From NCBI GenBank assembly GCA_964513625.1, contig CAZENH010000001.1:241642-305641 (forward strand): 64,000 bases of DNA, read 5' to 3'. The notes below the pieces were generated by a model that was not told where the DNA came from, searched no databases, and worked only from the letters and a program-made list of their open reading frames with translations. The DNA is from an uncultured Myxococcales bacterium. Lineage in GTDB: Bacteria > Myxococcota > B64-G9. The position numbers were made by a program, and so were the translations under genes. Positions 15,157-56,530 of this stretch are shown here, piece after piece. Within the stretch, counting starts at the first letter, position 1. Each line of letters starts with the position of its first letter.

Positions 15157-18100
15157 ATGAAACTCCGCTTTTTTCTGTTTTTGGCTTCAGTTTGGTATTT
15201 CTCGGCGGTATTTTCCGCCTGCGGTGGCGACACTGTGGGCGACGGCGATACCGGTGTTGTACTTTGCACGACGAACGATCAGTGCCCCGTCGGCATGTTC
15301 TGCAACGACGGAATCTGTGACGCATTATCGGACGGCGGCGGCTGCCAGAGCAACGAGGATTGCGAGGCAGGATATCACTGTGACATTCTCAACAAGCGCT
15401 GTGTTGCCGACTCTGACGGGGGAGGTGAGCCTGCCGATGGTTCTGACGGAGGTGTGTTCGACGGCGGTGATGGCGGCGGCGACCAGGAGGCCGAGTGCGA
15501 GCCTGACGAAGTACGCGAATGCGGTCCGGGAACAAAAGTGGGCGAGTGCGACATTGGCGTCGAGCACTGCGTCGCGGGCAAGTGGAGTGGAGTTTGCGAA
15601 GGCGCTGTCTACCCCGAGAACGAGAAGTGCGACGGGCTGGACAACGATTGCGATGGAAATACCCCGGCGGATGAGATCGACCAGGACGGCGACGGGATAT
15701 CCGCCTGCCAGGGAGATTGCGACGAGAGCAACGCCGATGTGCATCCCGGCGCTGGCGAGATCTACTGCAACCAGAAGGACGACGACTGCGATCCTGCAAC
15801 TTCCGACGATGTAGACGCCGACGGTGACGGTTTCTCCGTCTGCCTAGGCGATTGCGACGACTCCCGGGACGACGTTCATCCCGGCCTGGTCGAGGTGCCT
15901 TGCGACGGAGCGGACAACGATTGCGATCCGGAGACTTCTGACGGGCCGGACGAGGACGGAGACGGTGTCAGCGGATGCGGAGGCGACTGCGATGACCACG
16001 ATGCCGGTCGTTTTCCCGGTAATACCGAGATCAACTGCAATTCAGTCGACGACGATTGCGATCCGGGCACCCTGGACGACCCCGATCCGACAGACGCTGA
16101 TGGTGACGGCTACTCGTTGGGCTGTGGTGCCGATTGCGACGACGGTGCCGCGGCCGTAAACCCCGGGGCCGTCGAAGTTCAGTGCGACGGGATCGACAAC
16201 GACTGCGATCCGTCGAGCGCCGACGATCCCGACCCGACCGACGCCGACGGAGACCACTACACCCGCGGCTGCGGCGGCGATTGCAACGACACCAATCAAA
16301 CAATCAATCCCGGTGCCACGGAAATTGACTGCGACTGGATAGACAACGACTGCAACTCGCAGACTGCGGATGACCCGGACCCGACCGACGCCGACGCGGA
16401 TAATCACACTATCGGCTGCGGCGGCGATTGCGACGACACCAACCCGAATGTTCACCCTGATGCCATCGAAGTGCAGTGCGACGGCATCGACAATGATTGC
16501 TTTGCCCAGACCTTCGATGATCCCGATCCGACCGACGCCGACGGAGATAACTACACCCGCGGCTGCGGCCATGATTGCAACGATACCAATCCGGCCGTCA
16601 ACCCCGGGGCGAACGAAGTTCAGTGCGACGGCACTGACAACGACTGCAATGCCGCAACACCCGACGATCTGAATCCTGCGGACAACGACGGCGACAACTA
16701 TTCCGTAGGTTGCGGCCATGATTGCAACGACGGCAACCAGAACGTCCATCCCGGCGCGGCCGAGATACAGTGCGACCTGATTGACAACGATTGCAACCCC
16801 GGCACACCCGATGATCCCGATCCGACCGATGCCGACGGCGACAATCACACTGTCGGTTGCGGTGGAGATTGCAACGACACCGACCCGGCCATTCATCCCG
16901 GTGTTGCGGAAGTGCCGTGCGACGGCATCGATAACGACTGCAACGCGGTGACGCCGGACGATTCCGACCCGACCGACGCCGACTCGGACAACTACACGCG
17001 CGGCTGCGGCGCCGACTGCGACGACACCGACCCGTCCGTCAATCCCGGTGCGGGCGAGACGCCATGCGACGGCCTGAACAACGATTGCAATGCCGCAACG
17101 CCCGACGACTCAAATCCCGCCGATAGCGACGGGGACAGCTACACTGTAGGCTGCGGTAATGACTGCAACGACGGCAACCCGGCCATTCATCCCGGGGCCA
17201 ACGAGGCAACATGCGACGGTGTTGACAACGATTGCAATCCCGCCACTCAGGACGACAGCGATCCGACCGATGCCGACGGAGACTTCTACACCCGCGGCTG
17301 CGGCCAGGACTGTGACGACACAAATCCCAACGTGCATCCCGGCGCCTCCGAGATCCAGTGTGACGGGCTGGATAACGATTGCAATCCGAGCACGCTTGAC
17401 GACCCGAACACAACCGACGGGGACGGGGACAACTGGACGATCGGTTGCGGTGACTGTAACGACTTCAACCCGGCCATCCATCCAGGCGCCGCTGAAACGC
17501 AGTGCGACGGCGTGGACAACGACTGCAACGCGGCAACACCTGACGATAGCAATCCACAGGACAACGACGGCGACAACTTTACCCAGGGGTGCGGCGCCGA
17601 CTGTAACGATAATGACGGTGATATTAACCCAGGACACTCAGAGGTCTGCGACGACAAGGACAACGATTGCGACGGGCGCACCGACCGTGACGACTTCGGC
17701 GGCATCTGCGATCTGGGCGAAGCCTGCGAACTGAGTCTGCCCGCCGACCAGGAACACTGCTCGGGCGAACTTTACTGTCAGCACAACAATACAGACAGCC
17801 GCAACTTGTGCGTCCACTGGTGCAACAACTCGCACGAAGTGCCGGGAGGCACCGACGGAGTGCACGAGTGCCCGCTGGGCTACAAGTGCGAATTGTACTC
17901 CAACACCGATTCTTCGGGCTTCTGCTGGCCGGTCCAATCCGGCAACGGCGGCAAGGACGTCGGGGCCGCCTGCGGCTCGGATAGCGAGTGCCGCAGCGAG
18001 TGGTGTTCTACTGATGGATACTGTATCAGCGGTTGTTCCAGCCGCACCGGTTGCCAGCACGTCTCTAACTGGAGCTGCGTGCTCAATAGTATCTCGAGCG

Positions 18101-18528
18101 CCAACGGAAACATGCACCACGGACTGTGCATGCAGGCCCCGGGCACGCTCAACACCGGGGAAGTGTGCTGGGCGAATTCAGATTGTCGTGACGGCTTCTG
18201 CGATTTCTATGCCGGTAGCTACGGTGAGTGTGAGAATTTCTGCTGCGTGGTAAATGATTGCCCGCCAAGCTACTATTGTGCCATCTGGTATGGCCAGGAG
18301 TCTTCGATCATCAAAGCCTGTGACTGGGGCGCCCGTGGCGCGGGTGCCTTCGGCGATGCCTGCACGGATGACTCCGACTGCGCCAGCATGGTTTGTCTCG
18401 GAGGCCAGTGTAACTCATTCTGTTGCCGTAACGGAGACTGTCCCGGCGGCTACAAGTGTGACTTCGCCTTTTCGGTGGACATGTCACCGTATGACGACGC
18501 CCAGGGACGCGCCTGCGTGCCCGAGTAG
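15157..18528 (+). CDS. secreted Asp/Cys-rich repeat protein ('putative metal-binding motif' MopE-like repeats) with a Cys-rich C-terminal domain
   Basis: Signal peptide MKLRFFLFLASVWYFSAVFSACGG. About 17 tandem ~41-aa units of the form DxDGDxYxxGCGxDCxDxNPxxxPGAxExxCDGxDNDC(D/N). Confidence 0.65.
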   Translation: MKLRFFLFLASVWYFSAVFSACGGDTVGDGDTGVVLCTTNDQCPVGMFCNDGICDALSDGGGCQSNEDCEAGYHCDILNKRCVADSDGGGEPADGSDGGVFDGGDGGGDQEAECEPDEVRECGPGTKVGECDIGVEHCVAGKWSGVCEGAVYPENEKCDGLDNDCDGNTPADEIDQDGDGISACQGDCDESNADVHPGAGEIYCNQKDDDCDPATSDDVDADGDGFSVCLGDCDDSRDDVHPGLVEVPCDGADNDCDPETSDGPDEDGDGVSGCGGDCDDHDAGRFPGNTEINCNSVDDDCDPGTLDDPDPTDADGDGYSLGCGADCDDGAAAVNPGAVEVQCDGIDNDCDPSSADDPDPTDADGDHYTRGCGGDCNDTNQTINPGATEIDCDWIDNDCNSQTADDPDPTDADADNHTIGCGGDCDDTNPNVHPDAIEVQCDGIDNDCFAQTFDDPDPTDADGDNYTRGCGHDCNDTNPAVNPGANEVQCDGTDNDCNAATPDDLNPADNDGDNYSVGCGHDCNDGNQNVHPGAAEIQCDLIDNDCNPGTPDDPDPTDADGDNHTVGCGGDCNDTDPAIHPGVAEVPCDGIDNDCNAVTPDDSDPTDADSDNYTRGCGADCDDTDPSVNPGAGETPCDGLNNDCNAATPDDSNPADSDGDSYTVGCGNDCNDGNPAIHPGANEATCDGVDNDCNPATQDDSDPTDADGDFYTRGCGQDCDDTNPNVHPGASEIQCDGLDNDCNPSTLDDPNTTDGDGDNWTIGCGDCNDFNPAIHPGAAETQCDGVDNDCNAATPDDSNPQDNDGDNFTQGCGADCNDNDGDINPGHSEVCDDKDNDCDGRTDRDDFGGICDLGEACELSLPADQEHCSGELYCQHNNTDSRNLCVHWCNNSHEVPGGTDGVHECPLGYKCELYSNTDSSGFCWPVQSGNGGKDVGAACGSDSECRSEWCSTDGYCISGCSSRTGCQHVSNWSCVLNSISSANGNMHHGLCMQAPGTLNTGEVCWANSDCRDGFCDFYAGSYGECENFCCVVNDCPPSYYCAIWYGQESSIIKACDWGARGAGAFGDACTDDSDCASMVCLGGQCNSFCCRNGDCPGGYKCDFAFSVDMSPYDDAQGRACVPE
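15630..17700 (+). repeat. in-frame tandem ~123-nt repeat array (~17 copies) encoding the Asp/Cys metal-binding-motif units
   Basis: Recurring GACGGnnTnGACAACGAnTGCnAnnCC / CCCGGnGC(n) blocks. Translation gives the periodic DNDC...PGA...CDG pattern. Confidence 0.8.
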
Positions 18529-20878: not shown

Positions 20879-21742
20879 ATGGTTTATCGTTTAGATCCTT
20901 GTCTTGACAATATCCAACTCCGCTGTCAAGAGTCAACCATATTGATGGCAATTGACTGTTGCAACAAGCCTTGGCAAACTTCAAACGTGAGCGAGCATAC
21001 TAACAGGCCCAAGCTATATCTGATCGCAGCTCCGATTGGTGATTTCTTCGGCGATCTCAGTGTCAATGCTTTACAGACTCTTCGAAGGATCCGAGTGGTC
21101 TTCGTGGAGGACACGGGTTTCGATGTCGAGGATCTGCTGGTGGAAAAGCTGCGCTCAAGGGGCATACTGACCGAAGAACATGAATTGTTCCCGATAGCCG
21201 GGCCAGAGGACTCCCGCAGGCAGCTTCCGTTTGTGGACGAAATGATCCGCAAAGGCACGTCGTTCGCCATTCTTGCCGATAGGGGACTGCCGTGCTTCAT
21301 CGATCCCGGCACCGAGATAATAAACCACATCATAGAGAAACACACAGGCAGCATTGATCTGGTTCCCATCGGTGCTTCCTCGGCCATGGATGCGGCCATT
21401 GCCATGTCGGGTGTGAATTGCACCAGATTCATATTTTTAGGCCACTACCCGCAAGATCACGGGCTGAACCTCGATTTCCATCTGTTGGGCGTGCCGGTTG
21501 TAGTCTACGTTAGGGGAGATTCCCTCTTGAGCTTCATCGAAAAACTGCGTTCACGGCTCGGCCGCAAGGCAGGCTCGTTTTATCTGACGGTCTTTTCAAA
21601 CATTCGCCAGCGCCTGCACAGCGCCCTGCGGCGCTTCAAACTGTCCGAACCGATCGAGAGCTTCGCGGGATTCACACCTGCAGACGATTCAACTCCGGAC
21701 GGAATATGCCAGAACAATTTCACGGTGATATTGCATCACTAG
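20879..21742 (+). CDS. RsmI-like tetrapyrrole-methylase-fold SAM methyltransferase (rRNA 2'-O-methyltransferase family)
   Basis: KLYLIAAPIGDFFGDLSVNALQTLRRIRVVFVEDT parallels the RsmI N-terminal motif (LYIVxTPIGNLxDIT...AEDT). ILADRGLPCFIDPG parallels SDAGTPxIxDPG. The start may be internal ATG 20945. Confidence 0.55.
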   Translation: MVYRLDPCLDNIQLRCQESTILMAIDCCNKPWQTSNVSEHTNRPKLYLIAAPIGDFFGDLSVNALQTLRRIRVVFVEDTGFDVEDLLVEKLRSRGILTEEHELFPIAGPEDSRRQLPFVDEMIRKGTSFAILADRGLPCFIDPGTEIINHIIEKHTGSIDLVPIGASSAMDAAIAMSGVNCTRFIFLGHYPQDHGLNLDFHLLGVPVVVYVRGDSLLSFIEKLRSRLGRKAGSFYLTVFSNIRQRLHSALRRFKLSEPIESFAGFTPADDSTPDGICQNNFTVILHH

Positions 21743-23756
21743 CTGCTGTTTTAGGCAGCAGGCGATAGAAGCCTACCGGGACGGGATCGATCCGGTAGTT
21801 GTCGCAGAATTCGGGCCGGGACGGTAAACCAGTTGTGGCTATGGGATCGAGTCGAAAAGCTGATTCGATAGCCAGGCACTCCGGCATGACTGCCCAGGTT
21901 GCAGACTTCAGGGATTGTGACCAGGCCCGGCAAGAGGCCGGTTGCCAATAGGCGAGGCATCCCTTGGAAGGATCGAGCTCGGCCGATGGTTCGACCCATG
22001 AAAGGTCGAGCCCCAGCAATCGGGTCAGGTATGTAGGCACTCGTAAGCCGATGTCGCCATATGGCCATGAGATACGCACTATTCGGCAGCCGGCAGGAAC
22101 CTTGCCTATGTTTTCCCTGAAGAAGCGGTATTCGAGCTTGAAAGTCGGCTCGAGCGGACGAAAAACCAGCGGCTTAGCTGCGATAACCGCCGCCGCCGAG
22201 GCGGCAAGTATTACAAGAAAGCTACCGAAGCGCGGTCGGATTCTCAGCATGGCTTCCCATAGCCAGGCGACGCACATGCCTGCCAGAGTGGCTCCCAATG
22301 GTACGAGCTGTAGCTGATAACGGGCTGTAACGATATCGGTTCTCGAAAAACAGGCGGTCGGCAAGGCCGGTAGCAGACCAATGCAAAGCCACAGGATGGT
22401 CCGGCCGCGTGTGCGGAACAGGGAGACAACTAATCCTGCAAGAAACAGCACGGTAAAAGGCCAGGGTGTCCTCGGGGGCGCCAGTATAGAGCGGCCCCCG
22501 AACAGGTCGAAAAGACCACGGGCCTCACTGTTGGTGGCGCAGAAAAGGGGCGAAAAGCCTCCCGACATGGCCTCGATGCTAGCGGTATAGACAGCCATGC
22601 AGGTCAGCAAGCCAAGCAGAATGGTCGGAGCGAGCACCAGCGGCCGGAATTGGATCTTGCGAATGGAGGGTGTGATCAGCACGATGACTCCCAGTGGGAG
22701 AAGCGCCAAGGACATCTCCGGCCTGGTCGTTGCCGCCAGGCAGCCTGCCAGCCAACCTAAGAAAAGTAAACTGCCCGATTTGAAGCGTCCGGAGGAAATC
22801 ACCAGGGCAAGAGAGGAGATCAGCAGGAGCGCAATCAGCCCGCCGGCGTCGTCGGTTGGTGAGAGCCGGGCGTGGATTGGCCACAGCGCCATAGCCGCAC
22901 CGGCGGCCAGTCCGGCCCAGCGACTCCCGCTGCCGAACCAGGCCAGGAAGTACACCGGAATCACAGTCAGCGCCCCGGCTACAGCTCCGGCCATGAAGGC
23001 GATCTTATCGTCAGATCCGAAAATCCAGAACCAGCCGAGGATCCAGCCCCCGAAGCCGCAGCCGAACTGGGGATATCCCGAAGGCGGGGCGGACGGTTCG
23101 GGCAGGCGCGAGACCATCTGGCCGGGCCCCGGTATCATCAGCCACTGCCGGATGATAAAAGCTGCGATCGTCAAAACAGCAATCTCAATCAGAATGCGGC
23201 GCTGTTCGGGCTCTTTCCACGGCTTTCGGCGTAAGGCGAACACTAACCCAAGAATGAGAAGACTCCAGAAAGCCGCCATCCAAGCAAGCGTGGCAAGCGC
23301 GCCTAGCGAGGAAAACCAGGGGTTGGGTCTCGACGGGGACAAGTTGGCTGCTGGAGATGCGATCAGGTGCCAGAATTCGCCATCATCTTTGTTGGCGATA
23401 GCTTGTGCTACGTTTCTGACTAGCAGCGTTCGGGCTTGGTCATCCAGGCCGTGGCTGCTTACAACGAACAACTCGAAGGAGGGAGTAGATCCGGCGGCAT
23501 CCTTACGGCCCTGATTGTCACGCAACTCGATGACCAGCTTTTCGCCGTGTGGCCCGCTCAAGTGAGCCCGAATACGGTCCTTGGGGATCTCGATGTCGGG
23601 AACCTGCCAGCCGGCAGTGTTCCCCTGGCCGATGCCGCTAAAGAGCGATTCGATCTCGGCTTCGCGCCCGGCCTCGATGATATGCGTTCCGGACGAGATC
23701 GCAACTGATGGCAGCGGCGTAAGAAATGTCAGTATGGTGCAAAGCTCGATGATCAT
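21720..23756 (-). CDS. polytopic membrane protein, GT-C-type glycosyltransferase-like (PMT_2/ArnT-like), with a ~140-aa N-terminal soluble region
   Basis: At least 10 hydrophobic helices. An acidic loop FGSDDKIAF follows the first transmembrane (TM) pair, as in PMT/ArnT-type enzymes. The family assignment is tentative. Confidence 0.4.
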   Translation of the reverse strand: MIIELCTILTFLTPLPSVAISSGTHIIEAGREAEIESLFSGIGQGNTAGWQVPDIEIPKDRIRAHLSGPHGEKLVIELRDNQGRKDAAGSTPSFELFVVSSHGLDDQARTLLVRNVAQAIANKDDGEFWHLIASPAANLSPSRPNPWFSSLGALATLAWMAAFWSLLILGLVFALRRKPWKEPEQRRILIEIAVLTIAAFIIRQWLMIPGPGQMVSRLPEPSAPPSGYPQFGCGFGGWILGWFWIFGSDDKIAFMAGAVAGALTVIPVYFLAWFGSGSRWAGLAAGAAMALWPIHARLSPTDDAGGLIALLLISSLALVISSGRFKSGSLLFLGWLAGCLAATTRPEMSLALLPLGVIVLITPSIRKIQFRPLVLAPTILLGLLTCMAVYTASIEAMSGGFSPLFCATNSEARGLFDLFGGRSILAPPRTPWPFTVLFLAGLVVSLFRTRGRTILWLCIGLLPALPTACFSRTDIVTARYQLQLVPLGATLAGMCVAWLWEAMLRIRPRFGSFLVILAASAAAVIAAKPLVFRPLEPTFKLEYRFFRENIGKVPAGCRIVRISWPYGDIGLRVPTYLTRLLGLDLSWVEPSAELDPSKGCLAYWQPASCRAWSQSLKSATWAVMPECLAIESAFRLDPIATTGLPSRPEFCDNYRIDPVPVGFYRLLPKTAASDAISP

Positions 23757-23934
23757 GGGCTACTATTCTCGCCGAAGTTGTAGTAAAAGCAAGCCGGGAG
23801 AGAAATTGAGACAAATATCCGCAATGAGCCCGAGGCAGTTCATCTCGCACCTACGCTTCCTGCGATCGAGACCGCTCGTTGCCGCCAGATTGGCCGCTAA
23901 CGTCTTCCACGCCTTTCTTTTGAAACGGCCACGG

Positions 23935-24894
23935 ATGAAAAACATGGAACTGGCCGTGACCTATCGCTGTAACCAGAAGTGCGAGATGTGCTCGGCAACG
24001 ACTTTGGCGCGCAAACACGCCCGGGTTCTATCCGTGGATGAAATCGTGGATCTGGTCGATCAATGCAAGCTTCTGGGCCTCGTGCATGTCGACCTGACTG
24101 GGGGAGAACCCTTGCTCAGGCCATGGGACGAGCTGGTAACCATTGTAGAGGGGCTTTCGAGGAACAAAGACATTATCGTGGCCATGGCAACGAACGGCCT
24201 GCTGGTAAACGCTGACAGGCTTGCAAGATTACGGCAGGCCGGCCTGACACAGATTCTTTTCAACATACAAAGCGCGGATGCCGACAACCACGATCAAATC
24301 GTGGGCGTGAGCGGAAGTTTTTCAAGAGCTGTTTCCGGAGTCGTGCAAGCCAAGAAATTGGGGTACAGCGTTTGTATCAATACGGTCATCGGCAGGCACA
24401 ATTTCGATGACATAGTCCGGCTGGGTGAAAAGTGCAAGACATGGGGTGCTTTTCTGGCCCTCAACCTGGCGGCCAGCGCCGGCGAATGGCGCACTGAACA
24501 CGAGCACAAGCTCACCGAAGATTGGTATGCCCGCTACAGCGCTCTGCTCAGGCAGCCACATGTCCGCTCTGACAACATAATCAACTTCAAGACGTTTGGT
24601 TGGGGCTGCCCCGGGGGAATCGAGAAAGTCTACGTCACAGAGTACGGCGAGGTTTTGCAGTGTCCTTTCGTCCAGGTTTCCTACGGGAATGTACGACAAG
24701 AACCGATAGATCGGATTTTCAGAAGAATGTCCAGCTCGCACTTCATCTCGAAGTATTCCGAGCGCTGCAAGCACGTCTTCTCAGAAGAGTTTCGAAAGGA
24801 ATGGCTGGACCCGTTGGATGACTTTCCTGTCTTGCCCATCAGGTACAACCAGCATCCATATTTGAAACGCAAGCCTGATTGCGAGGGCGAGTGA
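23935..24894 (+). CDS. radical SAM protein with a C-terminal SPASM/twitch-like Cys cluster
   Basis: VTYRCNQKCEMCS (CxxxCxxC). C-terminal GWGCPGG...QCPF. The track's 23581 start overlaps the convergent upstream gene, so I used the internal ATG 23935 (MKNMELAV). Confidence 0.7.
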   Translation: MKNMELAVTYRCNQKCEMCSATTLARKHARVLSVDEIVDLVDQCKLLGLVHVDLTGGEPLLRPWDELVTIVEGLSRNKDIIVAMATNGLLVNADRLARLRQAGLTQILFNIQSADADNHDQIVGVSGSFSRAVSGVVQAKKLGYSVCINTVIGRHNFDDIVRLGEKCKTWGAFLALNLAASAGEWRTEHEHKLTEDWYARYSALLRQPHVRSDNIINFKTFGWGCPGGIEKVYVTEYGEVLQCPFVQVSYGNVRQEPIDRIFRRMSSSHFISKYSERCKHVFSEEFRKEWLDPLDDFPVLPIRYNQHPYLKRKPDCEGE

Positions 24895-25757
24895 TGGAAA
24901 GCTCTGCCGGATGCCTGTTCGGTTGCGACGCTAAGGCCGTGTCTCTTGCAGGAAGTGGAGCAGCGGCTCACTACCTTTGCTGTCAGAAATGCGGGTTGGT
25001 ATTTGAAGCGCATCCGGCATCGACTGAGGAGATAGAAAAGCAGTACCGTGACGATCTGAGTTCACCGAGCAAATACTATACAAGGAGCACGGACGAGGAC
25101 CGGACTACGTTTCGACGCAGGTTGCGACTGTTGACCGCTTTCAGGCCCAAGCGCGGCAGGTTGCTCGATATCGGATGCAGCGTGGGCACCTTGATGGACG
25201 AAGCACGGCGCCTGGGTTGGGAAGCCACTGGAGTCGAACCCAATCCACTGGCGGCTGGTATTGCCCGTCGATTGAATCTGCCGGTGATCGAGGAATTCTT
25301 CGGACCGGGCGTAGTTGAGAAGATCGGTGGTGACTTTGACTGTGTAGTGTTAAATGATGTTCTGGAACATCTTCGCGATCCTGCCCGGACGCTGAGACTA
25401 GTGCACAGCGTTCTCGTTCCAGGCGGCCTGGTAATGGCCAGCACACCAAACATGCAAAGTATATTATGCCGCACCTTCCAGATGAAACCAGGTGAGCACC
25501 TTTTCCTTTTCAATGATGGCAATTTCAGGAGCATCTTCGAACGCATGGGTTTCACGATTTGTTGTCTTGCGAGCACTTCGAGAAGGCGAGCACTTTCGCA
25601 TCTCGAATTGTCGACTACAAGGCTGCCAGCCTTCCTGAAGGCCGTACTCACTGTATTGGGTCGCCTCCGGCTTGACAGACCACTGTCCTGGCTTATGGAA
25701 GAACTTCTTCGCGACGAACTACTGATAATCGCACGTAAAACCAAGCGGTTAGAGTAA
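24894..25757 (+). CDS. class I SAM-dependent methyltransferase with an N-terminal Cys4 zinc ribbon
   Basis: LLDIGCSVGTLMDEA (motif I), VLNDVLEHLRDP, and CLFGC...CCQKCG. TGATG overlaps the upstream stop. Confidence 0.7.
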   Translation: MESSAGCLFGCDAKAVSLAGSGAAAHYLCCQKCGLVFEAHPASTEEIEKQYRDDLSSPSKYYTRSTDEDRTTFRRRLRLLTAFRPKRGRLLDIGCSVGTLMDEARRLGWEATGVEPNPLAAGIARRLNLPVIEEFFGPGVVEKIGGDFDCVVLNDVLEHLRDPARTLRLVHSVLVPGGLVMASTPNMQSILCRTFQMKPGEHLFLFNDGNFRSIFERMGFTICCLASTSRRRALSHLELSTTRLPAFLKAVLTVLGRLRLDRPLSWLMEELLRDELLIIARKTKRLE

Positions 25758-27122
25758 ACGTCTGAGCTTGTTTAGTGTTTTTTCGGGGTGACCGGAAAAA
25801 AACAGGTGGCGGGCAATGGTTCGAAGCCGTTTCGACGACAAGTAGAAGTTCAGGTACGCCTCTCGTCTCAACTTGTTGAGTTGCTCGGGCGCAATGGCCG
25901 CATCTTTGCTGTAGACTGGTTTTCCGTAATAGTCGAAATCGACGATGCCTGGACGAATCAATCCCTGGGTTTTTTCGTACAGAATTGTTCCTGGCAACGG
26001 GGTGGTGATGGAAAAGGTCGCATCGTCGAGGGCTAACTCACGGGCCAGGCGGATGGTCTGTCTGATTTCGTCAGCACTTTCTCCCGGGGCTCCCAGCATG
26101 AAGTAGCCCTGAATCGAGAGTTCGAACTGCTTGGCCAGGTTCACGGCGCGTCGGATCTGCTGATGGCTAATGTGCTTGTTGTATACATCATTCAGGATGC
26201 GAGCGGAGGCCGATTCGATGCCGATGTTGATCTTGCGCAGTCCGCATCGCCGCAGTTCCGCAATGAGCTTTTCATCGAGCGTGTCTGCCCTGGCATTGCA
26301 GGCCCAGATGACCTCCGGCCGAGCCTGATGAATGGCCCGGCCGGTGGCCCGGGCCCAGTCTGCATCGATAGTGAAAGTATCATCCTGGATCATGAAGCCG
26401 CGGATTGAGAAATCACTCGCAAGTTTGGAAATCTCATCGGCTATACCCGCCGGCGATCGCTTTCTGACCGTCGAGCCGAAGAGTTTACGCAGTGTCGGCT
26501 GGCAATAGCTGCAGTTGAACGAGCAGCCGCGCGAAGCGATAATCGACGTTCCGGGATTGGCACCTGGCACAGAGTCCATCTGAAACCAGTTGCGCAGGTA
26601 GGCCCGCATCGGGAGAAGGTGCCAGGCAGGCAACGGCAGCCTGTCGAGATCCTCGATTGGTTTGCGAGGGGTGGTTCTTATCAATTTGCCTGCGCGCATG
26701 AAAGCGATACCGGCGATGTGTTCGAGGTTCCCCGGCTGACTGACGATTTCCGGCAGGGTAGTATCAGCTTCTCCGATACAAACCGCGTCGGCTCCAGTTT
26801 GTCGCAACGCCATTTCTGGTACAACCGTGGGATGTGGACCGCCAAGAATCACTTGGGTACCTGAACAGATGCTTCGGGCCATGTCGGTCACTTGCGCGGA
26901 AGTGCTCAGCATTGACGCCATGACCGAGATGCCTACCAGGTCATAGCGCTTTTTCCTGAAAGCATCGAGCAGGTAGCCAAATGGATTGGATTCAAAAGTA
27001 GTATCGAGGATATCAACCTGTACACCCTGGATACGCTCCAACTGGGCGGCCAGCAGCGCGACTCCCAGTGGAGGATCTCCCGAGCGATAGATCATGCGCG
27101 GAAATACCAGCGCGACTTTCAT
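25749..27122 (-). CDS. B12-binding (class B) radical SAM protein
   Basis: N-terminal B12-binding-like MKVALVFPRM...DILDT. SRGCSFNCSYCQPT. ATGA overlap with the upstream GT2. Confidence 0.8.
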   Translation of the reverse strand: MKVALVFPRMIYRSGDPPLGVALLAAQLERIQGVQVDILDTTFESNPFGYLLDAFRKKRYDLVGISVMASMLSTSAQVTDMARSICSGTQVILGGPHPTVVPEMALRQTGADAVCIGEADTTLPEIVSQPGNLEHIAGIAFMRAGKLIRTTPRKPIEDLDRLPLPAWHLLPMRAYLRNWFQMDSVPGANPGTSIIASRGCSFNCSYCQPTLRKLFGSTVRKRSPAGIADEISKLASDFSIRGFMIQDDTFTIDADWARATGRAIHQARPEVIWACNARADTLDEKLIAELRRCGLRKINIGIESASARILNDVYNKHISHQQIRRAVNLAKQFELSIQGYFMLGAPGESADEIRQTIRLARELALDDATFSITTPLPGTILYEKTQGLIRPGIVDFDYYGKPVYSKDAAIAPEQLNKLRREAYLNFYLSSKRLRTIARHLFFSGHPEKTLNKLRRLL

Positions 27123-27898
27123 GCTTGCCGATCCCCGTCGTATATCCCCTGGCGATCACGCCGGCGGATCTCCAGCAGGCCCCAAAACATCTTGAGCGAG
27201 TCTCGCAGAGTGTTCAGCTTGCTGTCCGGATCGTTGGTCCAGACGACCGGGACCTCGGCGATTCTGAAGCCCAGCCTGCGGGCTATAAACAACGTCTCGA
27301 CGTCGAAGACGAATCCGTCGGCCTGCACCTTGGTGAAGATTTCTTCGGCAGCCTTGGCGCGGAAACACTTGAAGCCGCACTGAGTGTCTTTTATGCCGCC
27401 AATGACAAGTGCCCGGCGCAACGGTCGAAACACCATCCCGGCGGCGTAGCGCAGGTTGGTTTGGCGGCGGGTGACGATCGAGTCTCTGAGTGCCCGCGAG
27501 CCAATCACGATGTCGGAACCGGCCGCGAAATGGGCCCAGAACTTGTCTATTTCCTCGATAGCGGTCGATGAATCGGCATCCATGAAAAGCCTGAAGTCGC
27601 CTCGCGCTGCTAGCATACCGCTACGTACCGCGAAACCCTTGCCTCGGTTGGTGTCCAGACGTAAAACACGGCCTACCGGGGGTGCTTGCAAAGTCCTTGC
27701 GTTTTGCAGGAACCAGCGTTCAGCCCAGCGGGCCGTGCGATCGCGGCTGCCGTCGTCAACGACCAGGATCTCATAGGCGTAGTCCTTATTCGACAGGTGT
27801 TCATGGATCTTCTGCAAAGTGCTCAAAATGAGCATCTCCTCGTCGAAGGCCGGTACAACGACCGAGAGCAGATCGGGTTTTTCTTTCCTGGCAATCAT
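27119..27898 (-). CDS. GT2 polyprenyl-phosphate sugar synthase (DPM1/ArnC/GtrB-like), soluble, ~259 aa
   Basis: LSVVVPAFDEE, ILVVDDGSRDRT, FMDADSS, QCGFKCF. Confidence 0.75.
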   Translation of the reverse strand: MIARKEKPDLLSVVVPAFDEEMLILSTLQKIHEHLSNKDYAYEILVVDDGSRDRTARWAERWFLQNARTLQAPPVGRVLRLDTNRGKGFAVRSGMLAARGDFRLFMDADSSTAIEEIDKFWAHFAAGSDIVIGSRALRDSIVTRRQTNLRYAAGMVFRPLRRALVIGGIKDTQCGFKCFRAKAAEEIFTKVQADGFVFDVETLFIARRLGFRIAEVPVVWTNDPDSKLNTLRDSLKMFWGLLEIRRRDRQGIYDGDRQA

Positions 27899-27909
27899 CC
27901 TGGTGCATC

Positions 27910-27938
27910 AATATATCCGTCCACGGAGCCTGTGGCAA
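27910..27938 (-). promoter_or_regulatory. candidate sigma-70-like promoter on the minus strand (TTGCCA-17-TATATT) for the GT2 to B12-rSAM operon
   Basis: The reverse complement of 27910-27938 reads TTGCCA cagg...acgga TATATT, 11 nt before ATG 27898. Confidence 0.35.
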
Positions 27939-28029
27939 CCGGACCCGGTGTGTGCTATTGATACGCCTAGCGCCGCAGACTTCGCGGCACAAGGCCGACA
28001 AATGTTGCATTTGCAGTCTTCGGTGAAAC

Positions 28030-29679
28030 TTGGCTCAATTGCAACGCGTTTGCATCTTTCAATGGTCTTGGAGGGCAGCCAGATTGGTCGAGATCATCGT
28101 CGATCGTAAGCGGGCGGTGCACGAGAAGAGACGCTGGGTCAGGCTGACCCGCACCTGTAACAACCACTGCCTCTTCTGTCTCGATTCCGGAATTGTCGGC
28201 GAGAAAATACGGGCAGTCGACGAGATCCGCGCCGAGATCGACGAGGGACGCAGAGATGGTTGCGAACGCCTGATTTTGTCCGGTGGAGAACCCACGCTGC
28301 ACCCGGATTACCTGGATCTGGTTGCCTATGGCGCCGGGCTGGGTTACAGCTGGGTGCAGACAGTGTCCAATGGCCGCATGTTTTCATATTCTTCGTTTGC
28401 CGCTCGCGCAGTCAAATCAGGGCTTTGTGAAGCCACTTTCTCCATGCATGGACACGAAGCGAAACTGCACGACCGCCTAGTGGGAGTAAAAGGTGCTTTC
28501 GATCAAGCCATCAAGGGAATGGACAACCTCAGGAATCTCGGGATCGTTGTCAACGTCGATATTGTTCTGACCGGCCTGAATGCTGAGCAACTACCAGAAA
28601 TAGTCGAGTATTTCATGCAATCCGGGGTGCGCGAATTCGACTTGCTGTGGATGGTGCCTTTCGGCTCGGCCTGGCGGAACAGGCACGAACTGTTTCTGGA
28701 ACCGGAATCGGCCTTGCCGCGCTTACATGAAGCCATACGGCGTGCCAGGGCCGCCGGCGCCGTGGTCTGGACGAATCGCCTGCCGCCGCCGTTGCTGGAA
28801 GGACACGAGGATCTCATACAGGATCCCCACAAGCTTCACGATGAAGTTCGCGGTCGGTTGCCCGAATACATGGAATTGATCTCGAGCGGGGAGCCCTTGA
28901 GATGCAATCAACCCGAGAGGTGCCGTCAGTGTCCCATGGAGGGGTTCTGCCGGTCCCTCGAGAGCCTATTGTGCGAGACTGCCGAAGGCGGGCCGACTTC
29001 ACTAAGCGTCAATGCTGACTGCCAGATTGAATCCGGGATGAAAAAACTACTTGCCGGTTCCTCACGACTGCGAATCCACGCCCGGGATCAAAAAAGACTC
29101 GCTGAATTCATCGGATCCCTGGAATTGGACGGACAAGCTCTCATACTGGTTCTCGATTTCATACCGGATAGCGATGGGCTGGATTTCATTGCTGGATTGG
29201 GAGAAAATGTAGTCAGGATGGCCTCCGGTGTTCCAGATGTGTTGGAGGCGATACTGGCCGGGTGGCCGGGTGAAGTCGAGGTCATGCTGAACCGGGCGAC
29301 TGAAGACTGGGTTGCCGAGAGAATAGATTTTATTTGCTTACAGACAGATCGCTTGCTGTTTTCTGCGGAACCCATTGCAACTAATCCTGCTGAAGCTCTA
29401 AGGCCACTTGCAAGATACGGCATACGCTTACTGAATCTTCCGCGATGCCTCCTTGCCGGTGCAGTGTCAGTTGACGAGACCGAGCCTGTGGCTGTCGAGG
29501 CTGTAATGGGGCTTGCCGCGGGAGAGTTGGCAGCCTTCACCGAACATTACATCAGTCATTGCCACAGGACATACTCTTTGCGGTGCAAAAACTGTCAGTG
29601 GTGTGCGTCATGTAAGGGTCTACCCGTGAATATGATTCGCGCCCATGGTTTTGACGCTCTGTGTCATCCATCCACCTGA
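28030..29679 (+). CDS. radical SAM protein with C-terminal Cys-rich segments
   Basis: RLTRTCNNHCLFCLDSG. C-terminal CNQPERCRQCPMEGFC and CKNCQWCASC. The start could instead be TTG 28084, which is preceded by GGAGGG. Confidence 0.7.
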   Translation: MAQLQRVCIFQWSWRAARLVEIIVDRKRAVHEKRRWVRLTRTCNNHCLFCLDSGIVGEKIRAVDEIRAEIDEGRRDGCERLILSGGEPTLHPDYLDLVAYGAGLGYSWVQTVSNGRMFSYSSFAARAVKSGLCEATFSMHGHEAKLHDRLVGVKGAFDQAIKGMDNLRNLGIVVNVDIVLTGLNAEQLPEIVEYFMQSGVREFDLLWMVPFGSAWRNRHELFLEPESALPRLHEAIRRARAAGAVVWTNRLPPPLLEGHEDLIQDPHKLHDEVRGRLPEYMELISSGEPLRCNQPERCRQCPMEGFCRSLESLLCETAEGGPTSLSVNADCQIESGMKKLLAGSSRLRIHARDQKRLAEFIGSLELDGQALILVLDFIPDSDGLDFIAGLGENVVRMASGVPDVLEAILAGWPGEVEVMLNRATEDWVAERIDFICLQTDRLLFSAEPIATNPAEALRPLARYGIRLLNLPRCLLAGAVSVDETEPVAVEAVMGLAAGELAAFTEHYISHCHRTYSLRCKNCQWCASCKGLPVNMIRAHGFDALCHPST

Positions 29680-33387: not shown

Positions 33388-33416
33388 TTGACAGGCGACT
33401 TCCGACAAACTAGGTT
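33388..33416 (+). promoter_or_regulatory. candidate sigma-70-like promoter TTGACA-17-TAGGTT upstream of the hxs-like operon
   Basis: Hexamers read directly. An AAGGGAG SD at 33441-33447 precedes ATG 33458. Confidence 0.4.
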
Positions 33417-33457
33417 TGAGCGGTTGTCGCCATGCCAAGCAAGGGAGTGCCTGTACC

Positions 33458-33883
33458 ATGGACACGAGAATAGAGGCCGTAAAAAATCGCGTTTTATGTG
33501 AAATTGACGAGAAGGTTTTCCCCCGCGGGGTTGTGGTCAGCACCGCCTACCTGTTTTTAGAACGCTGCTACGTGCGTCTTGAGTCGGCGCCCAAGGGACG
33601 CATAGTCGTCCAATTAAAGGGCAAACGTAAGACAGCCAAGGCACGGCTGCAGACCCTGGCTGATGAGTTCGGCAACGAGTTGATGCACCAGTTGATGCGC
33701 GACCAAGTCGCCGAGAAAACCAACGGGTTGCGGGAAATCCTGGTTGGGCGGGCGCTGCTTTCGGCCGTGCCGGCAGGGGAAGAGGGTTCTTTAGCTGAAT
33801 CCGAGGAAGAGCAGGATTACCTCGACGATCCCCTGGGGATCGCCGTTCCCTGGGAAGAGAAATATGGCGACGAAGAACAATAG
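33458..33883 (+). CDS. small HxsD-like protein, paralog 1 (141 aa from ATG 33458), with an acidic C-terminal tail
   Basis: It aligns to the next ORF: FPRGVV...VRLESAPKGRIVVQL...TAKA...LADEFGNEL against YPRQAL...IEFSKEGSKTIVNF...VAAKVPDEFTNFAL. SD-supported start. The track's 33416 start adds 14 unlikely residues. Confidence 0.4.
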   Translation: MDTRIEAVKNRVLCEIDEKVFPRGVVVSTAYLFLERCYVRLESAPKGRIVVQLKGKRKTAKARLQTLADEFGNELMHQLMRDQVAEKTNGLREILVGRALLSAVPAGEEGSLAESEEEQDYLDDPLGIAVPWEEKYGDEEQ

Positions 33884-34112
33884 CCGCCTTGCAGGAGAAG
33901 CCAAGGCTACACTCAGGCTCGATTTGGCTTTCTACCCCCGGCAGGCGCTTGACAGGGCCAGGGAAGCCTTCTCCAAACTTGCTGACATCGAGTTTAGCAA
34001 GGAAGGATCGAAAACGATTGTCAACTTCAGCCATATGCGGACCGGTGTCGCGGCGAAGGTGCCCGACGAATTTACGAATTTCGCGTTGGCCTGCACGGTG
34101 TCCGGACAATGA
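33864..34112 (+). CDS. small HxsD-like protein, paralog 2 (82 aa)
   Basis: Paralogous to 33458..33883. ATGA translational coupling into the downstream rSAM. Its position and size fit the small partner protein of His-Xaa-Ser systems as I remember it. Confidence 0.45.
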   Translation: MATKNNSRLAGEAKATLRLDLAFYPRQALDRAREAFSKLADIEFSKEGSKTIVNFSHMRTGVAAKVPDEFTNFALACTVSGQ

Positions 34113-35590
34113 AGGCGTTTCGCATTCCCGAGGTTCATAGCCAGAAACTCATGCCGCTACGCTTTCGTGAACTCGATGGGCGAGTGTTGCTGACCAACGA
34201 CGCCGGAGAGCACGTCTGGCTCGAACGCGACGAGTTCGGAGATTTCCTGGCCGGAACACTCGCCGAAGACGGTCCAATATTCGGCAAGCTTCAGAAGAAC
34301 AATTTCGTTCGCCAGCCGGACAGCGAGAAGGCGGTTATGGATAAGCTGCACCGGCGCAGCGACCACCTCTTGCAGGGTCCCAACTTGCATATCGTCATCT
34401 TGACACTGCGCTGCAACCAGAACTGCGTATACTGCCATGCCAGTCGCAAGCCGCAGAAAAGCAAGGGCTTCGATATGAGTATCGAGACGGCCGCGCGTGT
34501 TCTGGACGTGATTTTTCAAAGTCCCTCGGATGAGTTGACCATCGAGTTCCAGGGAGGGGAGCCGGCCTTGAACTTCGATGTATTGAGATATTTCGTCGAA
34601 GAAGCCTATCGCAGGAACAAGGACGTAGGGCGACAGCTATACTTCAGCCTGGTAAGCAACCTGAGCGCGTTGAATCAAGAGCAGATTGACTTCCTGGTAG
34701 ACAACGGGGTGATGGTCTGTACCTCTATTGACGGGCCTCAGGAGCTTCACGATCACAATCGGCGTTTTTCCAAGAAGAGCAGCTACCTGGAAGCACTGGG
34801 AAGGATCGAGCAGTTCAACGAAGCCTATCGCAAGCGTGAACTCGACCCCGAGTTGGCCTACGTCAACGCCTTGGCCACCGTTTCGCGCTCTGCGCTTGCC
34901 GACCCTAAAGCACTGGTCGACGAGTACGTGCGCTTGGGCCACAAGGTTGTTCACCTGCGGCCGCTAAACCCTTTCGGAATGGGACTCAAAATATGGTCTC
35001 GCGAGGGCTACACGGCTGGGGAGTTTCTGAAGTTCTACGAGCAGGCGCTGGATTACATAATCGAGCTTAACAAGCAGGGCGTCGAGATCATGGAGAAGAT
35101 GGCGTCGATCATGTTGACTCGCATTTTGACCGACGAGAACCCCAACTACATGGATCTGCGTTCTCCTTGCGGGGCCGGCCTGGGCCAGCTTGCTTACAAC
35201 CACGACGGTCGGGTGTATACCTGTGACGAGGGGCGAATGGTTGGGGCCATGGGAGATGACCTCTTTTGCATCGGGGACGTCCACCAGGATGGTTATTCGG
35301 ATATTATCCAGCACCAGGGAGTGCGCACATTGTGTGTGGCCTCTTGCATCGAGGGACTGCCTGGCTGTTCGGATTGCGCCTACGTTCCTTATTGCGGCGT
35401 CTGCCCGGTCTACAACTACATAATGGAAGGCGACCTGGTTGCGCGAAGCTCCTCAAATGATCGTTGCCGCATCCAGAAGGGTATGCTCGACATGCTTTTC
35501 TTGCGTCTGCGCGAGCCCGGCCTTCATGATCTTCTGAGCCGCTGGACCGAAACCAAGGACCGTTCAAGCGTCTACAGCAGGAAAACCTGA
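34109..35590 (+). CDS. radical SAM/SPASM maturase (HxsB/HxsC-like), ~100-aa N-terminal extension
   Basis: LRCNQNCVYCHA. C-terminal SPASM-like CGAGLGQ...TCDEG...CVASC...CSDCAYVPYCGVCP. Confidence 0.8.
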   Translation: MKAFRIPEVHSQKLMPLRFRELDGRVLLTNDAGEHVWLERDEFGDFLAGTLAEDGPIFGKLQKNNFVRQPDSEKAVMDKLHRRSDHLLQGPNLHIVILTLRCNQNCVYCHASRKPQKSKGFDMSIETAARVLDVIFQSPSDELTIEFQGGEPALNFDVLRYFVEEAYRRNKDVGRQLYFSLVSNLSALNQEQIDFLVDNGVMVCTSIDGPQELHDHNRRFSKKSSYLEALGRIEQFNEAYRKRELDPELAYVNALATVSRSALADPKALVDEYVRLGHKVVHLRPLNPFGMGLKIWSREGYTAGEFLKFYEQALDYIIELNKQGVEIMEKMASIMLTRILTDENPNYMDLRSPCGAGLGQLAYNHDGRVYTCDEGRMVGAMGDDLFCIGDVHQDGYSDIIQHQGVRTLCVASCIEGLPGCSDCAYVPYCGVCPVYNYIMEGDLVARSSSNDRCRIQKGMLDMLFLRLREPGLHDLLSRWTETKDRSSVYSRKT

Positions 35591-35614: not shown

Positions 35615-37054
35615 ATGCCGAAAACCGGGGACGATATCCGCGCATTGTTCTCGGCGACCTCGGGTGAATGGGAGATCGCAGAGCTTCAGCGCGGACTTGC
35701 CAGTTTGCTGCTTTGTATCCGCGCCTCCAGCCCGCCCGATCGTGAGGTCACACTTTGGATAACGCCCCGTAACGATTCCGAGCCTGCTTTCGGACGCACC
35801 AAGCGCTTCAATATTGCCCTGCGTGGCGAGGGATATTCACAAGCCGAATGCGATCTGGCGGCGGCGGTCATCAAGCAGATCTCAGCACAAGAAATGGATT
35901 TTCCCGAGATTAGTCTGAGCATGCCACCTGCACTCGGCCTGCATTCACTGGTGCTCAACGTTTCTAATCGTTGCAACCTCAAGTGTCGCTTCTGTTTCGA
36001 AGACAAATCGAGGCGCACGGCCCCAATGCCGAGCCTTCAGGAGATACGCAGGACGTTTGAAAATGACGATCCATCGAAAGTAAGAAATGTGATGTTCATG
36101 TCCGGTGAGACCGTGCTGAGAAAGGATGCGCTTGCCCTGGTTGGAATGGCCCACGAGATGGGATACGCGAATATAGGGTTGGCTACCAACGGCACTTATT
36201 TCACGAGCAAGGAAAGGCTTGAGCCATTTCTGCAAGCGGGCCTGAATGGCCTGGAGCTTTCGATTCATTCAATGAGCCCGGAACATGCCAGCTATCTCTC
36301 GGGCAGGTCATTTACACCCCTGAAGCAGCGCCAGTGCCTGGAGGTAGTCGACACACTAACTGGTGAATACCCGCTGCATAGCACGATCAACACGGTCATC
36401 AACTCGGTGAATGTCGGAGATTTTCTCGATCTGGTGGGCATCATTGAACGGGATTTTCCCAGGATAAGACCGACCTATCATGTCAAATACACAGAGGCGA
36501 TTGAGAAGATCAGAGACAGAATCAAGATTGCCAGTTGGCCGGAAATCCGGAAAGCCGGTATTGTACGCGAGTTGCCTGAAGAAATTCACCCTCGTATTAA
36601 TTTCGAGAATTTTCCGCTTTGCACCATTTCGCCTTGCTACTACCTCAGCTCAAACCTTATTAGCTTCCTTGTTTCCGATGCCTACAGCTACTTCAATCCG
36701 GGTGACAATGAGAATTTGGTCACCGCCGATGCATTCAGATCCAGAAAAACCTGTTTCGCCGACGAGTGCGCTAGCTGCAACCTCCAGTTTCTCTGTTGTG
36801 GAATGAGTAAAGCCTATTTGGATTTATTTGGTAGTTTGGGGCATTGTGCCCCTCAAGATGCCGAAGCGCATCAGGTGCTCAAACGAGCCATCGAATTTCG
36901 CAAAGAGAACAAGCTGGACTATTCGAGCGAGATCGAACAGAAAATTGGAGATACCATCGGTCTCCTGCGGCGGATTTTACGCGCCAGAATGCAGTCTGGT
37001 CTCGGCCGATCATCAGTTGGGGAGGATGCAATTTTGCGTCAAATACTACCTTGA
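35615..37054 (+). CDS. second radical SAM/SPASM-twitch maturase (HxsB/HxsC-like), ~118-aa N-terminal extension
   Basis: SNRCNLKCRFCFEDK. C-terminal CFADECASCNLQFLCCG. AGGAGA SD. Confidence 0.75.
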   Translation: MPKTGDDIRALFSATSGEWEIAELQRGLASLLLCIRASSPPDREVTLWITPRNDSEPAFGRTKRFNIALRGEGYSQAECDLAAAVIKQISAQEMDFPEISLSMPPALGLHSLVLNVSNRCNLKCRFCFEDKSRRTAPMPSLQEIRRTFENDDPSKVRNVMFMSGETVLRKDALALVGMAHEMGYANIGLATNGTYFTSKERLEPFLQAGLNGLELSIHSMSPEHASYLSGRSFTPLKQRQCLEVVDTLTGEYPLHSTINTVINSVNVGDFLDLVGIIERDFPRIRPTYHVKYTEAIEKIRDRIKIASWPEIRKAGIVRELPEEIHPRINFENFPLCTISPCYYLSSNLISFLVSDAYSYFNPGDNENLVTADAFRSRKTCFADECASCNLQFLCCGMSKAYLDLFGSLGHCAPQDAEAHQVLKRAIEFRKENKLDYSSEIEQKIGDTIGLLRRILRARMQSGLGRSSVGEDAILRQILP

Positions 37055-39311: not shown

Positions 39312-39315
39312 GATG

Positions 39316-46168: not shown

Positions 46169-46195
46169 GAGGTATATGGAGCGATTTGACGCACG

Positions 46196-53265: not shown

Positions 53266-53275
53266 AGCCGACCCT

Positions 53276-54835: not shown

Positions 54836-54964
54836 CTGCCCCTGCTTCGATGTTGTGGACGCATGTAATGTACTTTGACATCCATACTCTAGTCATGGCA
54901 AGCACCTTGCAATTAAATCAATTTTGACCAAGATTACCAGACATCGGTTGTCTAACATGCGGCT

Positions 54965-56419: not shown

Positions 56420-56471
56420 CGCCAAATACGCAACTGAACTGTTAATCACCTTGTAGGTGGCTATTCCTGGT

Positions 56472-56501: not shown

Positions 56502-56530
56502 CCATAATCAAAACCCGGAGGATTTCTGAA

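Follow-up and report, generated by a model that had tools for sequence, protein, structure and literature searches.

A Cys-rich HxsC-like radical-SAM enzyme conserved with hxs genes, and a separable radical-SAM and glycosyltransferase cassette beside it, in a Myxococcota lineage

Do five neighboring genes that encode three radical S-adenosylmethionine (rSAM) enzymes, a methyltransferase and a glycosyltransferase form a single module of the hxs system beside which they stand, or does the stretch combine units of different history? The question is raised by 64,000 nucleotides (nt) of DNA, hereafter the window, from an uncultured Myxococcales bacterium (GTDB lineage Bacteria; Myxococcota; B64-G9; assembly GCA_964513625.1, contig CAZENH010000001.1, positions 241,642 to 305,641 of the forward strand), in which the five genes, here termed A to E in their order along the DNA, precede a large lipoprotein gene and the hxs genes. 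HXS was characterized in 2026 as a defense against phages (Li et al., Nat Commun; PMC13128918): HxsB, HxsC and HxsD convert HxsA, in which a +8 Da modification is found, into its mature form, and this form acts from the periplasm to block the entry of phage DNA. The chemistry of the rSAM step is unsolved; 99.7% of the described systems belong to the Pseudomonadota, with the gene order D-B-C-A (PMC13128918). An initial annotation of the window, made from the DNA letters, had grouped A to E as one upstream rSAM module. Its five genes and their functions were essentially right, as judged from the listing of open reading frames (ORFs) and from domain matches, and the single module did not hold up, given that E is conserved with the hxs genes and A-D are present at few of the loci that carry E. 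We favor, with moderate confidence, a composite reading of the stretch, in which E belongs to the hxs system and A-D form a separable cassette that, with a neighboring gene of the GT-C glycosyltransferase type, likely makes a modified sugar and attaches it in the envelope.

The window genes were identified through the ORF listing and profile searches (Pfam, NCBIfam). For synteny we used 80 loci with a homolog of E, one per species (loci are given by their L numbers), which were annotated by best match to the window proteins, HXS repeats being recognized with a regular expression; hxs markers and genes resembling the rSAM-methyltransferase gene F (Table 1) were also counted at the 40 E-family loci with full 10-kb flanks. 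The nearest genomes to the window's lineage are metagenome-assembled genomes of Myxococcota or 'Myxococcales', and identical proteins are present in metagenomes of the Joint Genome Institute (JGI). Relatives at 75-77% identity keep the whole arrangement, and E adjoins hxs in all hxs-bearing relatives at 41-77% identity: it stands before the lipoprotein and hxs genes in L002/L003, L008, L016, L017 and L022 (43-77% identity) and downstream of HxsA in L010 and L020, and L014 carries E, HxsD and HxsB. In all near relatives the gene after E encodes a lipoprotein. An hxs marker was found at 25 of the 80 E-family loci; among those with full flanks the marker occurs at 18 of 40 and an F-like rSAM at 24 of 40. 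The link is not exclusive, as F-E pairs are found at Polyangium-type loci that have no hxs. In many loci of Polyangia an F-like gene lies ahead of E in the same orientation, and E occurs in natural fusions with a second rSAM domain (C-terminal in P0005 and P0008, N-terminal in P0051), which suggests that the E/F enzyme pair is wider than hxs.

The four genes A-D show a different distribution. Their true orthologs were found at 3 of the 80 E-family loci (L012, L013, L017), and in addition in L104. L017 and L104, in which E is at about 47% identity, keep the GT-C gene, the pairs A B and C D, and the series E - lipoprotein - HxsD - HxsB. In L008 and L022 the GT-C gene is directly divergent from E - lipoprotein - HxsD - HxsB - HxsA, with no A-D between them, and E stands with hxs in L010, L014, L016 and L020 where A-D are absent, at a divergence comparable to that of L017. 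Parts of the cassette also occur apart from hxs. L006 has C (57%), D (64%) and E (47%) with a different lipoprotein and no hxs genes in the 6.6 kb of contig 3' of E, and L095 has A (66%) and B beside an amidohydrolase and a permease, with no hxs on the contig. C-D are thus found without A-B and A-B without C-D, and the two pairs behave as separate evolutionary units. The initial annotation had described two tightly coupled, convergent pairs, and this stands, with the gene overlaps in place and the pairs found separately in L006 and L095. It had also named synteny with hxs in relatives as the check on its module, and occurrence without hxs-like neighbors as the observation that would speak against it. 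The synteny is conserved for E and not for A-D, and occurrence apart from hxs was observed for A-D (C-D-E in L006, A-B in L095, and remote A-like and C-like sets in L093, L098, L100 and L102), while E behaves as a gene of the hxs neighborhood.

By its profile scores E is HxsC-like and not a member of HxsC itself: the best NCBIfam matches are HxsC (TIGR03977, 111 bits, cut-off 268) and HxsC4 (NF038332, 104 bits, cut-off 500). Its conserved cysteines comprise the CX3CX2C motif, C274/C280/C283/C289, C455 and C501/C504/C510, and its start is supported by the N-termini of homologs. E belongs to a large family of the Myxococcota, with HxsC as the nearest named relative. No protein of the window reaches the HxsC cut-off (268); E, F and the C-terminal half of the double rSAM H score 61-114 bits, and TIGR03977 is not among the 25 NCBIfam matches listed for the rSAM in the HxsC position. 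The latter gene is not HxsC-like and is absent from the hxs loci L008, L010, L016, L020 and L022. Its synteny places E in the hxs system; we infer that it acts as a maturase in this HXS variant and that it probably shares the HxsC role with its rSAM-methyltransferase paralog F. E would head an operon of the order E - lipoprotein - HxsD - small protein - HxsB - (rSAM) - HxsA4. The predicted effector HxsA4 has a twin-arginine translocation (TAT) motif (TRRDLL), about 17 GSH repeats and a terminal Trp, and no peptidoglycan-binding domain was detected in it. The small ORF of 82 amino acids (aa) between HxsD and HxsB, which has conserved counterparts in L002, L003 and L008 (36% identity) and shows a DEFxNxALxC motif, may encode a second HxsD-like accessory protein.

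Compared with the described HXS systems, the window likewise has HxsD, HxsB and an exported HXS-repeat protein above the NCBIfam cut-offs with rSAM enzymes beside them, and HxsC is the best named match of its E. It differs in belonging to the Myxococcota, in its HxsA4-type effector, in the lack of a protein at the HxsC cut-off, and in having the 1,200-aa lipoprotein and the E gene in addition; nothing in the system as described corresponds to A-D. PADLOC models (2023 library) applied to A-E and the hxs genes gave generic rSAM similarity to viperins and one methyltransferase match, and no HXS-specific match. We suggest that the locus represents a widespread Myxococcota variant of HXS, in which HxsC would be replaced by the Cys-rich rSAM family of E with F as a frequent partner, and in which the giant lipoprotein and the GT-C enzyme would be fixed neighbors. 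With E inside the system and A-D outside, the minimal gene set for reconstitution would be narrower.

Table 1. Features of the flagged stretch and its surroundings in the window (a dot marks features without a strand; bit scores refer to Pfam or NCBIfam profiles)
Feature	Position	Strand	Remarks
678-aa polytopic membrane protein, predicted GT-C fold (PMT_2/GT39-like)	21720..23756	-	divergent from A
Divergent intergenic region, GT-C gene / A	23757..23805	.	49 nt
A: rSAM enzyme with twitch-like C-terminal domain	23806..24894	+	Radical_SAM 91 bits
B: class I SAM methyltransferase with N-terminal Cys4 zinc-ribbon-like motif	24894..25757	+	Methyltransf_23 87.8 bits
C: predicted class B (B12-binding) rSAM enzyme	25749..27122	-	PF02310 B12-binding 80 bits; PF04055 Radical_SAM 76 bits
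D: GT2 glycosyltransferase, DPMS/ArnC/GtrB-like	27119..27898	-	Glycos_transf_2 (PF00535) 95 bits
Conserved half of the divergent gap D/E	27899..27975	.	contains promoter-like site and flanking inverted repeat
Promoter-like TTGCCA-17-TATATT	27938-27910	-	10/12 consensus positions
Lineage-specific insertion	27976..28078	.	~100 nt, with GGAGGG ribosome-binding site of E
E: Cys-rich HxsC-like rSAM enzyme	28084..29679	+	531 aa, TTG start
Choice-of-anchor-D lipoprotein	29719/29758-33375	+	~1,200 aa
HxsD	33416-33883	+	56 bits, cut-off 50
Small HxsD-adjacent ORF	33864-34112	+	82 aa; ends 4 nt into HxsB
HxsB, rSAM/SPASM maturase	34109-35590	+	520 bits, cut-off 370
rSAM in HxsC position	35615-37054	+	HxsC4 46 bits
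HxsA4	37109-37507	+	NF038313 101 bits, cut-off 55
F: HxsC-like rSAM fused to methyltransferase	37512-39425	-	convergent; TIGR03977 114 bits, NF038332 84 bits
H: double rSAM, B12-rSAM-like half and HxsC4-like half	40458-42707	+	

What, then, might A-D do? The initial annotation had begun A at ATG 23935. This is not its start, because the stretch SHLRFLRxRP...KRPRMKN upstream of that codon is conserved in A homologs down to 30% identity; the conserved N-terminus and the gene caller of the source databases place the start at TTG 23806 (362 aa), which is preceded by a Shine-Dalgarno-like GGGAGAG run, with ATG 23824 as an alternative. Of the earlier label rSAM-SPASM the first part stands, as the cysteines of the CX3CX2C cluster motif (C55, C59, C62) are invariant in the homolog alignment. 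A full SPASM domain was not borne out: the Pfam SPASM profile scores 19.5 bits, under its cut-off of 21.5, and the C-terminal part has three invariant cysteines alone (C268/C286/C321), short of the seven-Cys motif for two auxiliary clusters, as would be expected of a twitch domain or of a truncated SPASM domain. Sequence and fold comparisons both place it nearest to SkfB, BlsE, SuiB, MoaA and PqqE. A shares with these twitch/SPASM enzymes the CX3CX2C motif and, at the opening of such domains, the CX12GX4C hairpin; it differs in keeping three auxiliary cysteines and in an identity of at most 21% to any solved enzyme, and its substrate may be a sugar, a nucleotide or a peptide. A fold search aimed at sugar versus peptide substrates gave no discrimination, its top matches mixing SkfB, BlsE, SuiB and MoaA. 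The A family is rare, with about nine homologs at 41% identity or above among 5.8 billion sequences.

The Zn-ribbon label given earlier to the methyltransferase B is reasonable, because the N-terminal quartet CX3C...CX2C is conserved in five orthologs. The TGATG overlap of A and B is confirmed (junction gaGTGATGg), the stop TGA and the start ATG sharing base 24894, and B appears to be translationally coupled to A. B and C run into each other at their 3' ends over 9 nt (25749-25757), and terminator prediction at this overlap found none. The G+C content of A and B is 0.535-0.538 versus 0.591 in the GT-C gene.

On the opposite strand, C is predicted to be a class B rSAM enzyme, with an N-terminal B12-binding Rossmann domain and an rSAM core, and hence to bind cobalamin. 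It is a member of no named equivalog: the best NCBIfam matches are HpnJ (168 bits, cut-off 578), BchE (144 bits) and the MCR Gln C-methyltransferase (133 bits), all far under their cut-offs, and the nearest solved structures are QCMT (9CCB) and AprD4. C thus shares its two-domain build with class B rSAMs such as HpnJ, BchE, QCMT/MJ0865 and AprD4, and differs in its low scores on their families; the enzymes matched catalyze unrelated reactions. An analogy with the hopanoid enzymes HpnH/I/J was set aside, the scores being far under the cut-offs. D and C overlap by the ATGA at 27119-27122, as first described. D is a GT2, most likely of the polyprenyl-phosphate-sugar synthase type, predicted to transfer a sugar to polyprenyl phosphate: its nearest solved chains are the Dol-P-Man synthase 5mlz, ArnC and GtrB sll0501, and a DAD (DXD-type) motif is visible in its sequence. 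Its matches to the NCBIfam models AglJ, PgfS, ArnC and PpgS are all under the cut-off, and with 259 aa it is without the C-terminal membrane helices of GtrB and ArnC.

Further evidence comes from remote A-like genes (32-41% identity), none of whose contigs (L093, L098, L100, L102) contains an HXS-repeat ORF. The A-like gene of L093 has as neighbors two GT2, a Methyltransf_23, a B12-rSAM, a PMT_2 and a TylF gene; that of L098 has GT1s, an rSAM/SPASM, a GT2, a Methyltransf_23 and two more GT2; that of L100 adjoins a PMT_2 gene, and that of L102 an rSAM, a B12-rSAM, an asparagine synthase and a PMT_2 gene. Given the PMT_2 genes beside these A-like genes, the 678-aa membrane protein divergent from A was examined for a GT-C identity. 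A Pfam scan of the protein itself gave no match, even at E = 10; 10 of 15 homologs match PMT_2, with a best E of 7.5e-11. An AlphaFold2 model (predicted local distance difference test, pLDDT, 82.7; predicted template modeling score, pTM, 0.75) was compared with the PDB by Foldseek, and the top 37 matches are all GT-C enzymes, including PglB, ALG9, STT3, ArnT and Pmt4, with E values down to 6.5e-6 and TM-scores of 0.4-0.5. An hhalign comparison with three PMT_2 proteins gave a weak match (probability 1.9%). The modeled fold identifies the protein as a predicted GT-C glycosyltransferase. Its gene stays adjacent to E in L008, L017 and L022, and in the window D lies 3.4 kb from it.

A GT2 polyprenyl-phosphate-sugar synthase and a GT-C transferase are the standard pair of periplasmic glycosylation (ArnC/ArnT, GtrB/GtrV, Ppm1/Pmt). 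Since D resembles DPMS, ArnC and GtrB and its neighbor has a GT-C fold, we read A-D and the GT-C gene, from their context, as a candidate cassette for polyprenyl-phosphate-sugar glycosylation with rSAM and methyl tailoring. The arrangement parallels ArnC-ArnT, GtrA/B/V, Ppm1-Pmt and DPMS-POMT in combining a small DPMS/ArnC/GtrB-type GT2 with a nearby GT-C-fold protein, a pairing that recurs with the remote A-like and PMT_2 genes of L093, L100 and L102. It differs in that tailoring would be carried out by two rSAMs and a methyltransferase and not by enzymes of the ArnA/B/D type, in that D is without membrane helices, and in that the GT-C gene also occurs without D. The cassette, placed in one sub-lineage between the GT-C gene and E as two coupled pairs (A->B and D->C), would probably be transcribed from the conserved divergent intergenic regions. 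At the inner membrane face D would charge polyprenyl phosphate with a sugar taken from a nucleotide sugar; the twitch rSAM A, the methyltransferase B and C, a B12-dependent rSAM that is probably a C-methylase or a rearranging enzyme, would tailor that sugar or its precursor; and, after flipping, the GT-C enzyme would transfer it to a periplasmic or envelope acceptor. No paper was found in the literature that combines rSAM, polyprenyl phosphate, GT-C and cobalamin. The enzyme families of A-D are known and their combination is undescribed; they probably serve as an accessory cassette for glycosylation. If so, the recurrence of twitch rSAM, B12-rSAM, methyltransferase, GT2 and GT-C genes points to an undescribed route to radically tailored lipid-linked sugars for glycosylation of the envelope.

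Several observations weigh against this reading. The GT-C gene persists in L008 and L022, which have no D, and a homolog at 36% identity lies in an unrelated context in L105, so that the partnership of the GT-C gene with D is not obligatory. No flippase gene of the GtrA or ArnE/F type was identified among the annotated genes beside the cassette. The relatives of A and C mix modifiers of proteins or peptides (SkfB, SuiB, QCMT) with modifiers of sugars (BlsE, AprD4), and homology therefore does not separate sugar from peptide tailoring. The A-like loci free of hxs are remote, at 32-41% identity, and lie on short contigs, and in the three lineages with A-D the cassette always adjoins hxs, so that a local functional link is possible. 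A bolder version builds on such a link: the HXS effector system of this lineage would be glycosylated, A-D building an rSAM-tailored (for example C-methylated) sugar on a polyprenyl-phosphate carrier, and the adjacent GT-C enzyme, whose gene keeps its place beside E and hxs where A-D are missing, attaching it in the periplasm to the TAT-exported, Ser-rich HxsA4 or to the 1,200-aa lipoprotein. We regard this as decidedly improbable; were it true, the periplasmic barrier against phages would carry a sugar modification, which has not been seen in the HXS system described from gammaproteobacteria.

The alternative that survives best takes all five genes as one extended HXS maturation module, in which A-D would act directly on the HxsA4 repeat peptide in the manner of enzymes for ribosomally synthesized and post-translationally modified peptides (RiPPs), adding C-methylation by the B12-rSAM, cross-linking by the twitch rSAM, methylation, and GT2 glycosylation as in glycocins to the work of HxsB and E. 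The constant proximity to hxs in every lineage with true A-D orthologs speaks for this, as does the conserved divergent intergenic region common to D and E; moreover, the peptide maturases SkfB and SuiB are among the closest fold matches of A, the closest solved relative of C is the protein Gln C-methyltransferase QCMT, and canonical HXS depends on rSAM modification of HxsA (PMC13128918). However, most hxs loci of comparable divergence (L008, L010, L014, L016, L020, L022) do without A-D, C-D-E and A-B are found on contigs without hxs genes, sets of A-like, C-like, GT2 and methyltransferase genes recur with GT-C enzymes where there is no HXS-repeat ORF, and D, by its nearest solved chains, resembles lipid-phosphate sugar synthases. 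We consider this alternative unlikely.

Somewhat less probable still is that A-D are unrelated to both hxs and the GT-C gene and belong to a sugar-nucleotide/B12-rSAM island further downstream (about 40.4-57.1 kb) with a glycolipid or small-molecule product, their place beside hxs being incidental. Besides C, the window indeed has a further five B12-rSAMs, one double rSAM and one rSAM/SPASM gene, with an NTP-transferase, GT1, GT2, GDP-mannose dehydratase, epimerase and SIS isomerase between 40458 and 57133; the best family match of C is a hopanoid enzyme and A weakly matches HpnH (NCBIfam); and A-D move as a cassette. But between A-D and the island lie the hxs core and 13 kb of DNA, the hopanoid match of C is far below its cut-off, and among the six B12-rSAMs of the window it is always C itself that gives the best match to the C of other loci. 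Very unlikely, finally, is that the cassette is mobile or was recently transferred, an accessory block that has no constant partner and happened to land in a divergent intergenic region tolerant of insertions. For this the patchy presence and absence among equally distant relatives, the separation of the A-B and C-D pairs in other genomes, the slightly lower G+C of A and B than of the GT-C gene and a Y1 transposase near the cassette in L104 might be cited, but in the window no repeats, integrase or transposase flank the cassette, gene order and intergenic sequence are conserved across 55% to 84% protein identity, and the differences in composition are small.

Of the two divergent intergenic regions, the one between the GT-C gene and A is 90-96% identical to its counterparts in L012/L013, versus about 81% for the flanking genes. 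The gap between D and E, 185 nt in all, falls into two halves. In the half next to D, positions 27899-27968 are 89-90% identical to L012/L013, whose flanking genes are 75-87% identical. Here the initial annotation had proposed a minus-strand promoter, TTGCCA-17-TATATT. The site is real and conserved, and ranks first among the sigma-70-type matches of the 6.6 kb scanned; promoter-like sites are no more numerous in the region than expected by chance, four versus 3.7 +/- 1.9 in shuffled sequences. It is flanked by the inverted repeat GGTGCATCAATA / TATTGATACGCC, and its -10 hexamer ends 11 nt before the start codon of D, so that the leader would be about 5 nt and the mRNA almost leaderless. Because of its conservation in L012/L013 we regard it as a plausible sigma-70-type promoter. 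RNA folding of this conserved half gave no structured-RNA signal (z = -0.5).

The half next to E consists of the insertion of about 100 nt (27976-~28078), which is absent from L012, L013, L017 and L006; its motif is limited to this lineage's own contigs (L001/L004/L005), from two independent samples. Alignment with the relatives thus presents the TTGCA-rich insertion upstream of E as an apparently recent, lineage-specific addition. The regulator sites that had been suspected in its TTGCA and AACGCGTT motifs fared unevenly, the cluster being statistically real and the motifs lacking conservation even among the nearest relatives. Four copies of TTGCA fall within 28005-28054 (at 28005, 28011, 28039 and 28050), the densest cluster in the 64 kb, with a Poisson probability of about 2e-6 per 50 nt and about 0.003 after 1280 windows, and the palindrome AACGCGTT (28043-28050) occurs nowhere else in the window. 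The window was also searched for another TTGCAACGCGTTTGCA element with up to three mismatches, and none was found; folding of the inserted half gave no structured-RNA signal (z = 0.08).

A sigma-54 promoter in the gap (GG-N10-GC; TGGCAC-N5-TTGCW) was considered and rejected, the GG element being missing or wrongly spaced; the sole sigma-54-like match in the gap, TTGCAACGCGTTTGCA, has two mismatches including the GG, and the 41 such matches across the window, versus 33.8 +/- 5.1 expected, are not above chance. An ORF of 35 codons (28002-28109, +) has its ATG at 28002 in the insertion and, in a frame different from that of E, extends 25 nt into that gene. It might act as an upstream ORF, and it cannot be conserved, because the relatives are without the insertion.

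Other features of the window and of related loci deserve mention. Scans of the whole window found no Rfam family at its gathering score and no tRNA genes. The hxs locus of L010 (616-2808, 12656-20934), which has an 879-aa fusion of E with an rSAM, lies near a YfhO/DUF6541 GT-C, a GtrA, a B12-rSAM, an NTP-transferase, a GT2 and a GT87 gene. Nearby glycosylation genes are thus a recurrent feature of some myxobacterial hxs loci. In L006, where C-D-E stand on a contig with no hxs genes, their upstream neighbors (1316-6917) are a pair of nitrogenase-like Oxidored_nitro genes, one gene for a NifH-like ATPase and a pair of E-like rSAM genes, after which comes a PemK toxin gene. In the window the block 42760-57133 comprises an NTP-transferase, an rSAM/SPASM, a GT1, five B12-rSAM, an epimerase, a GDP-mannose dehydratase, a GT2 and a SIS isomerase gene; three of its five B12-rSAM genes are tandem paralogs (50165-54835), and in L039 and L056 homologs of its NTP-transferase, GT2 and GT1 genes adjoin E/F/hxs. 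In the intergenic region ahead of the B12-rSAM gene at 54965, TGGCAAGCACCTTGCA (54896-54911, +) departs from the sigma-54 consensus at one position. The conserved genes upstream in this backbone include one for a sigma-54 activator (13069-15087). At 15157-18528 (+) lies a gene for a 1,123-aa protein with 13 MopE-type putative metal-binding repeats (PF11617, E 3.5e-110), which is conserved in the same backbone in L008, L012, L013, L021 and L023.

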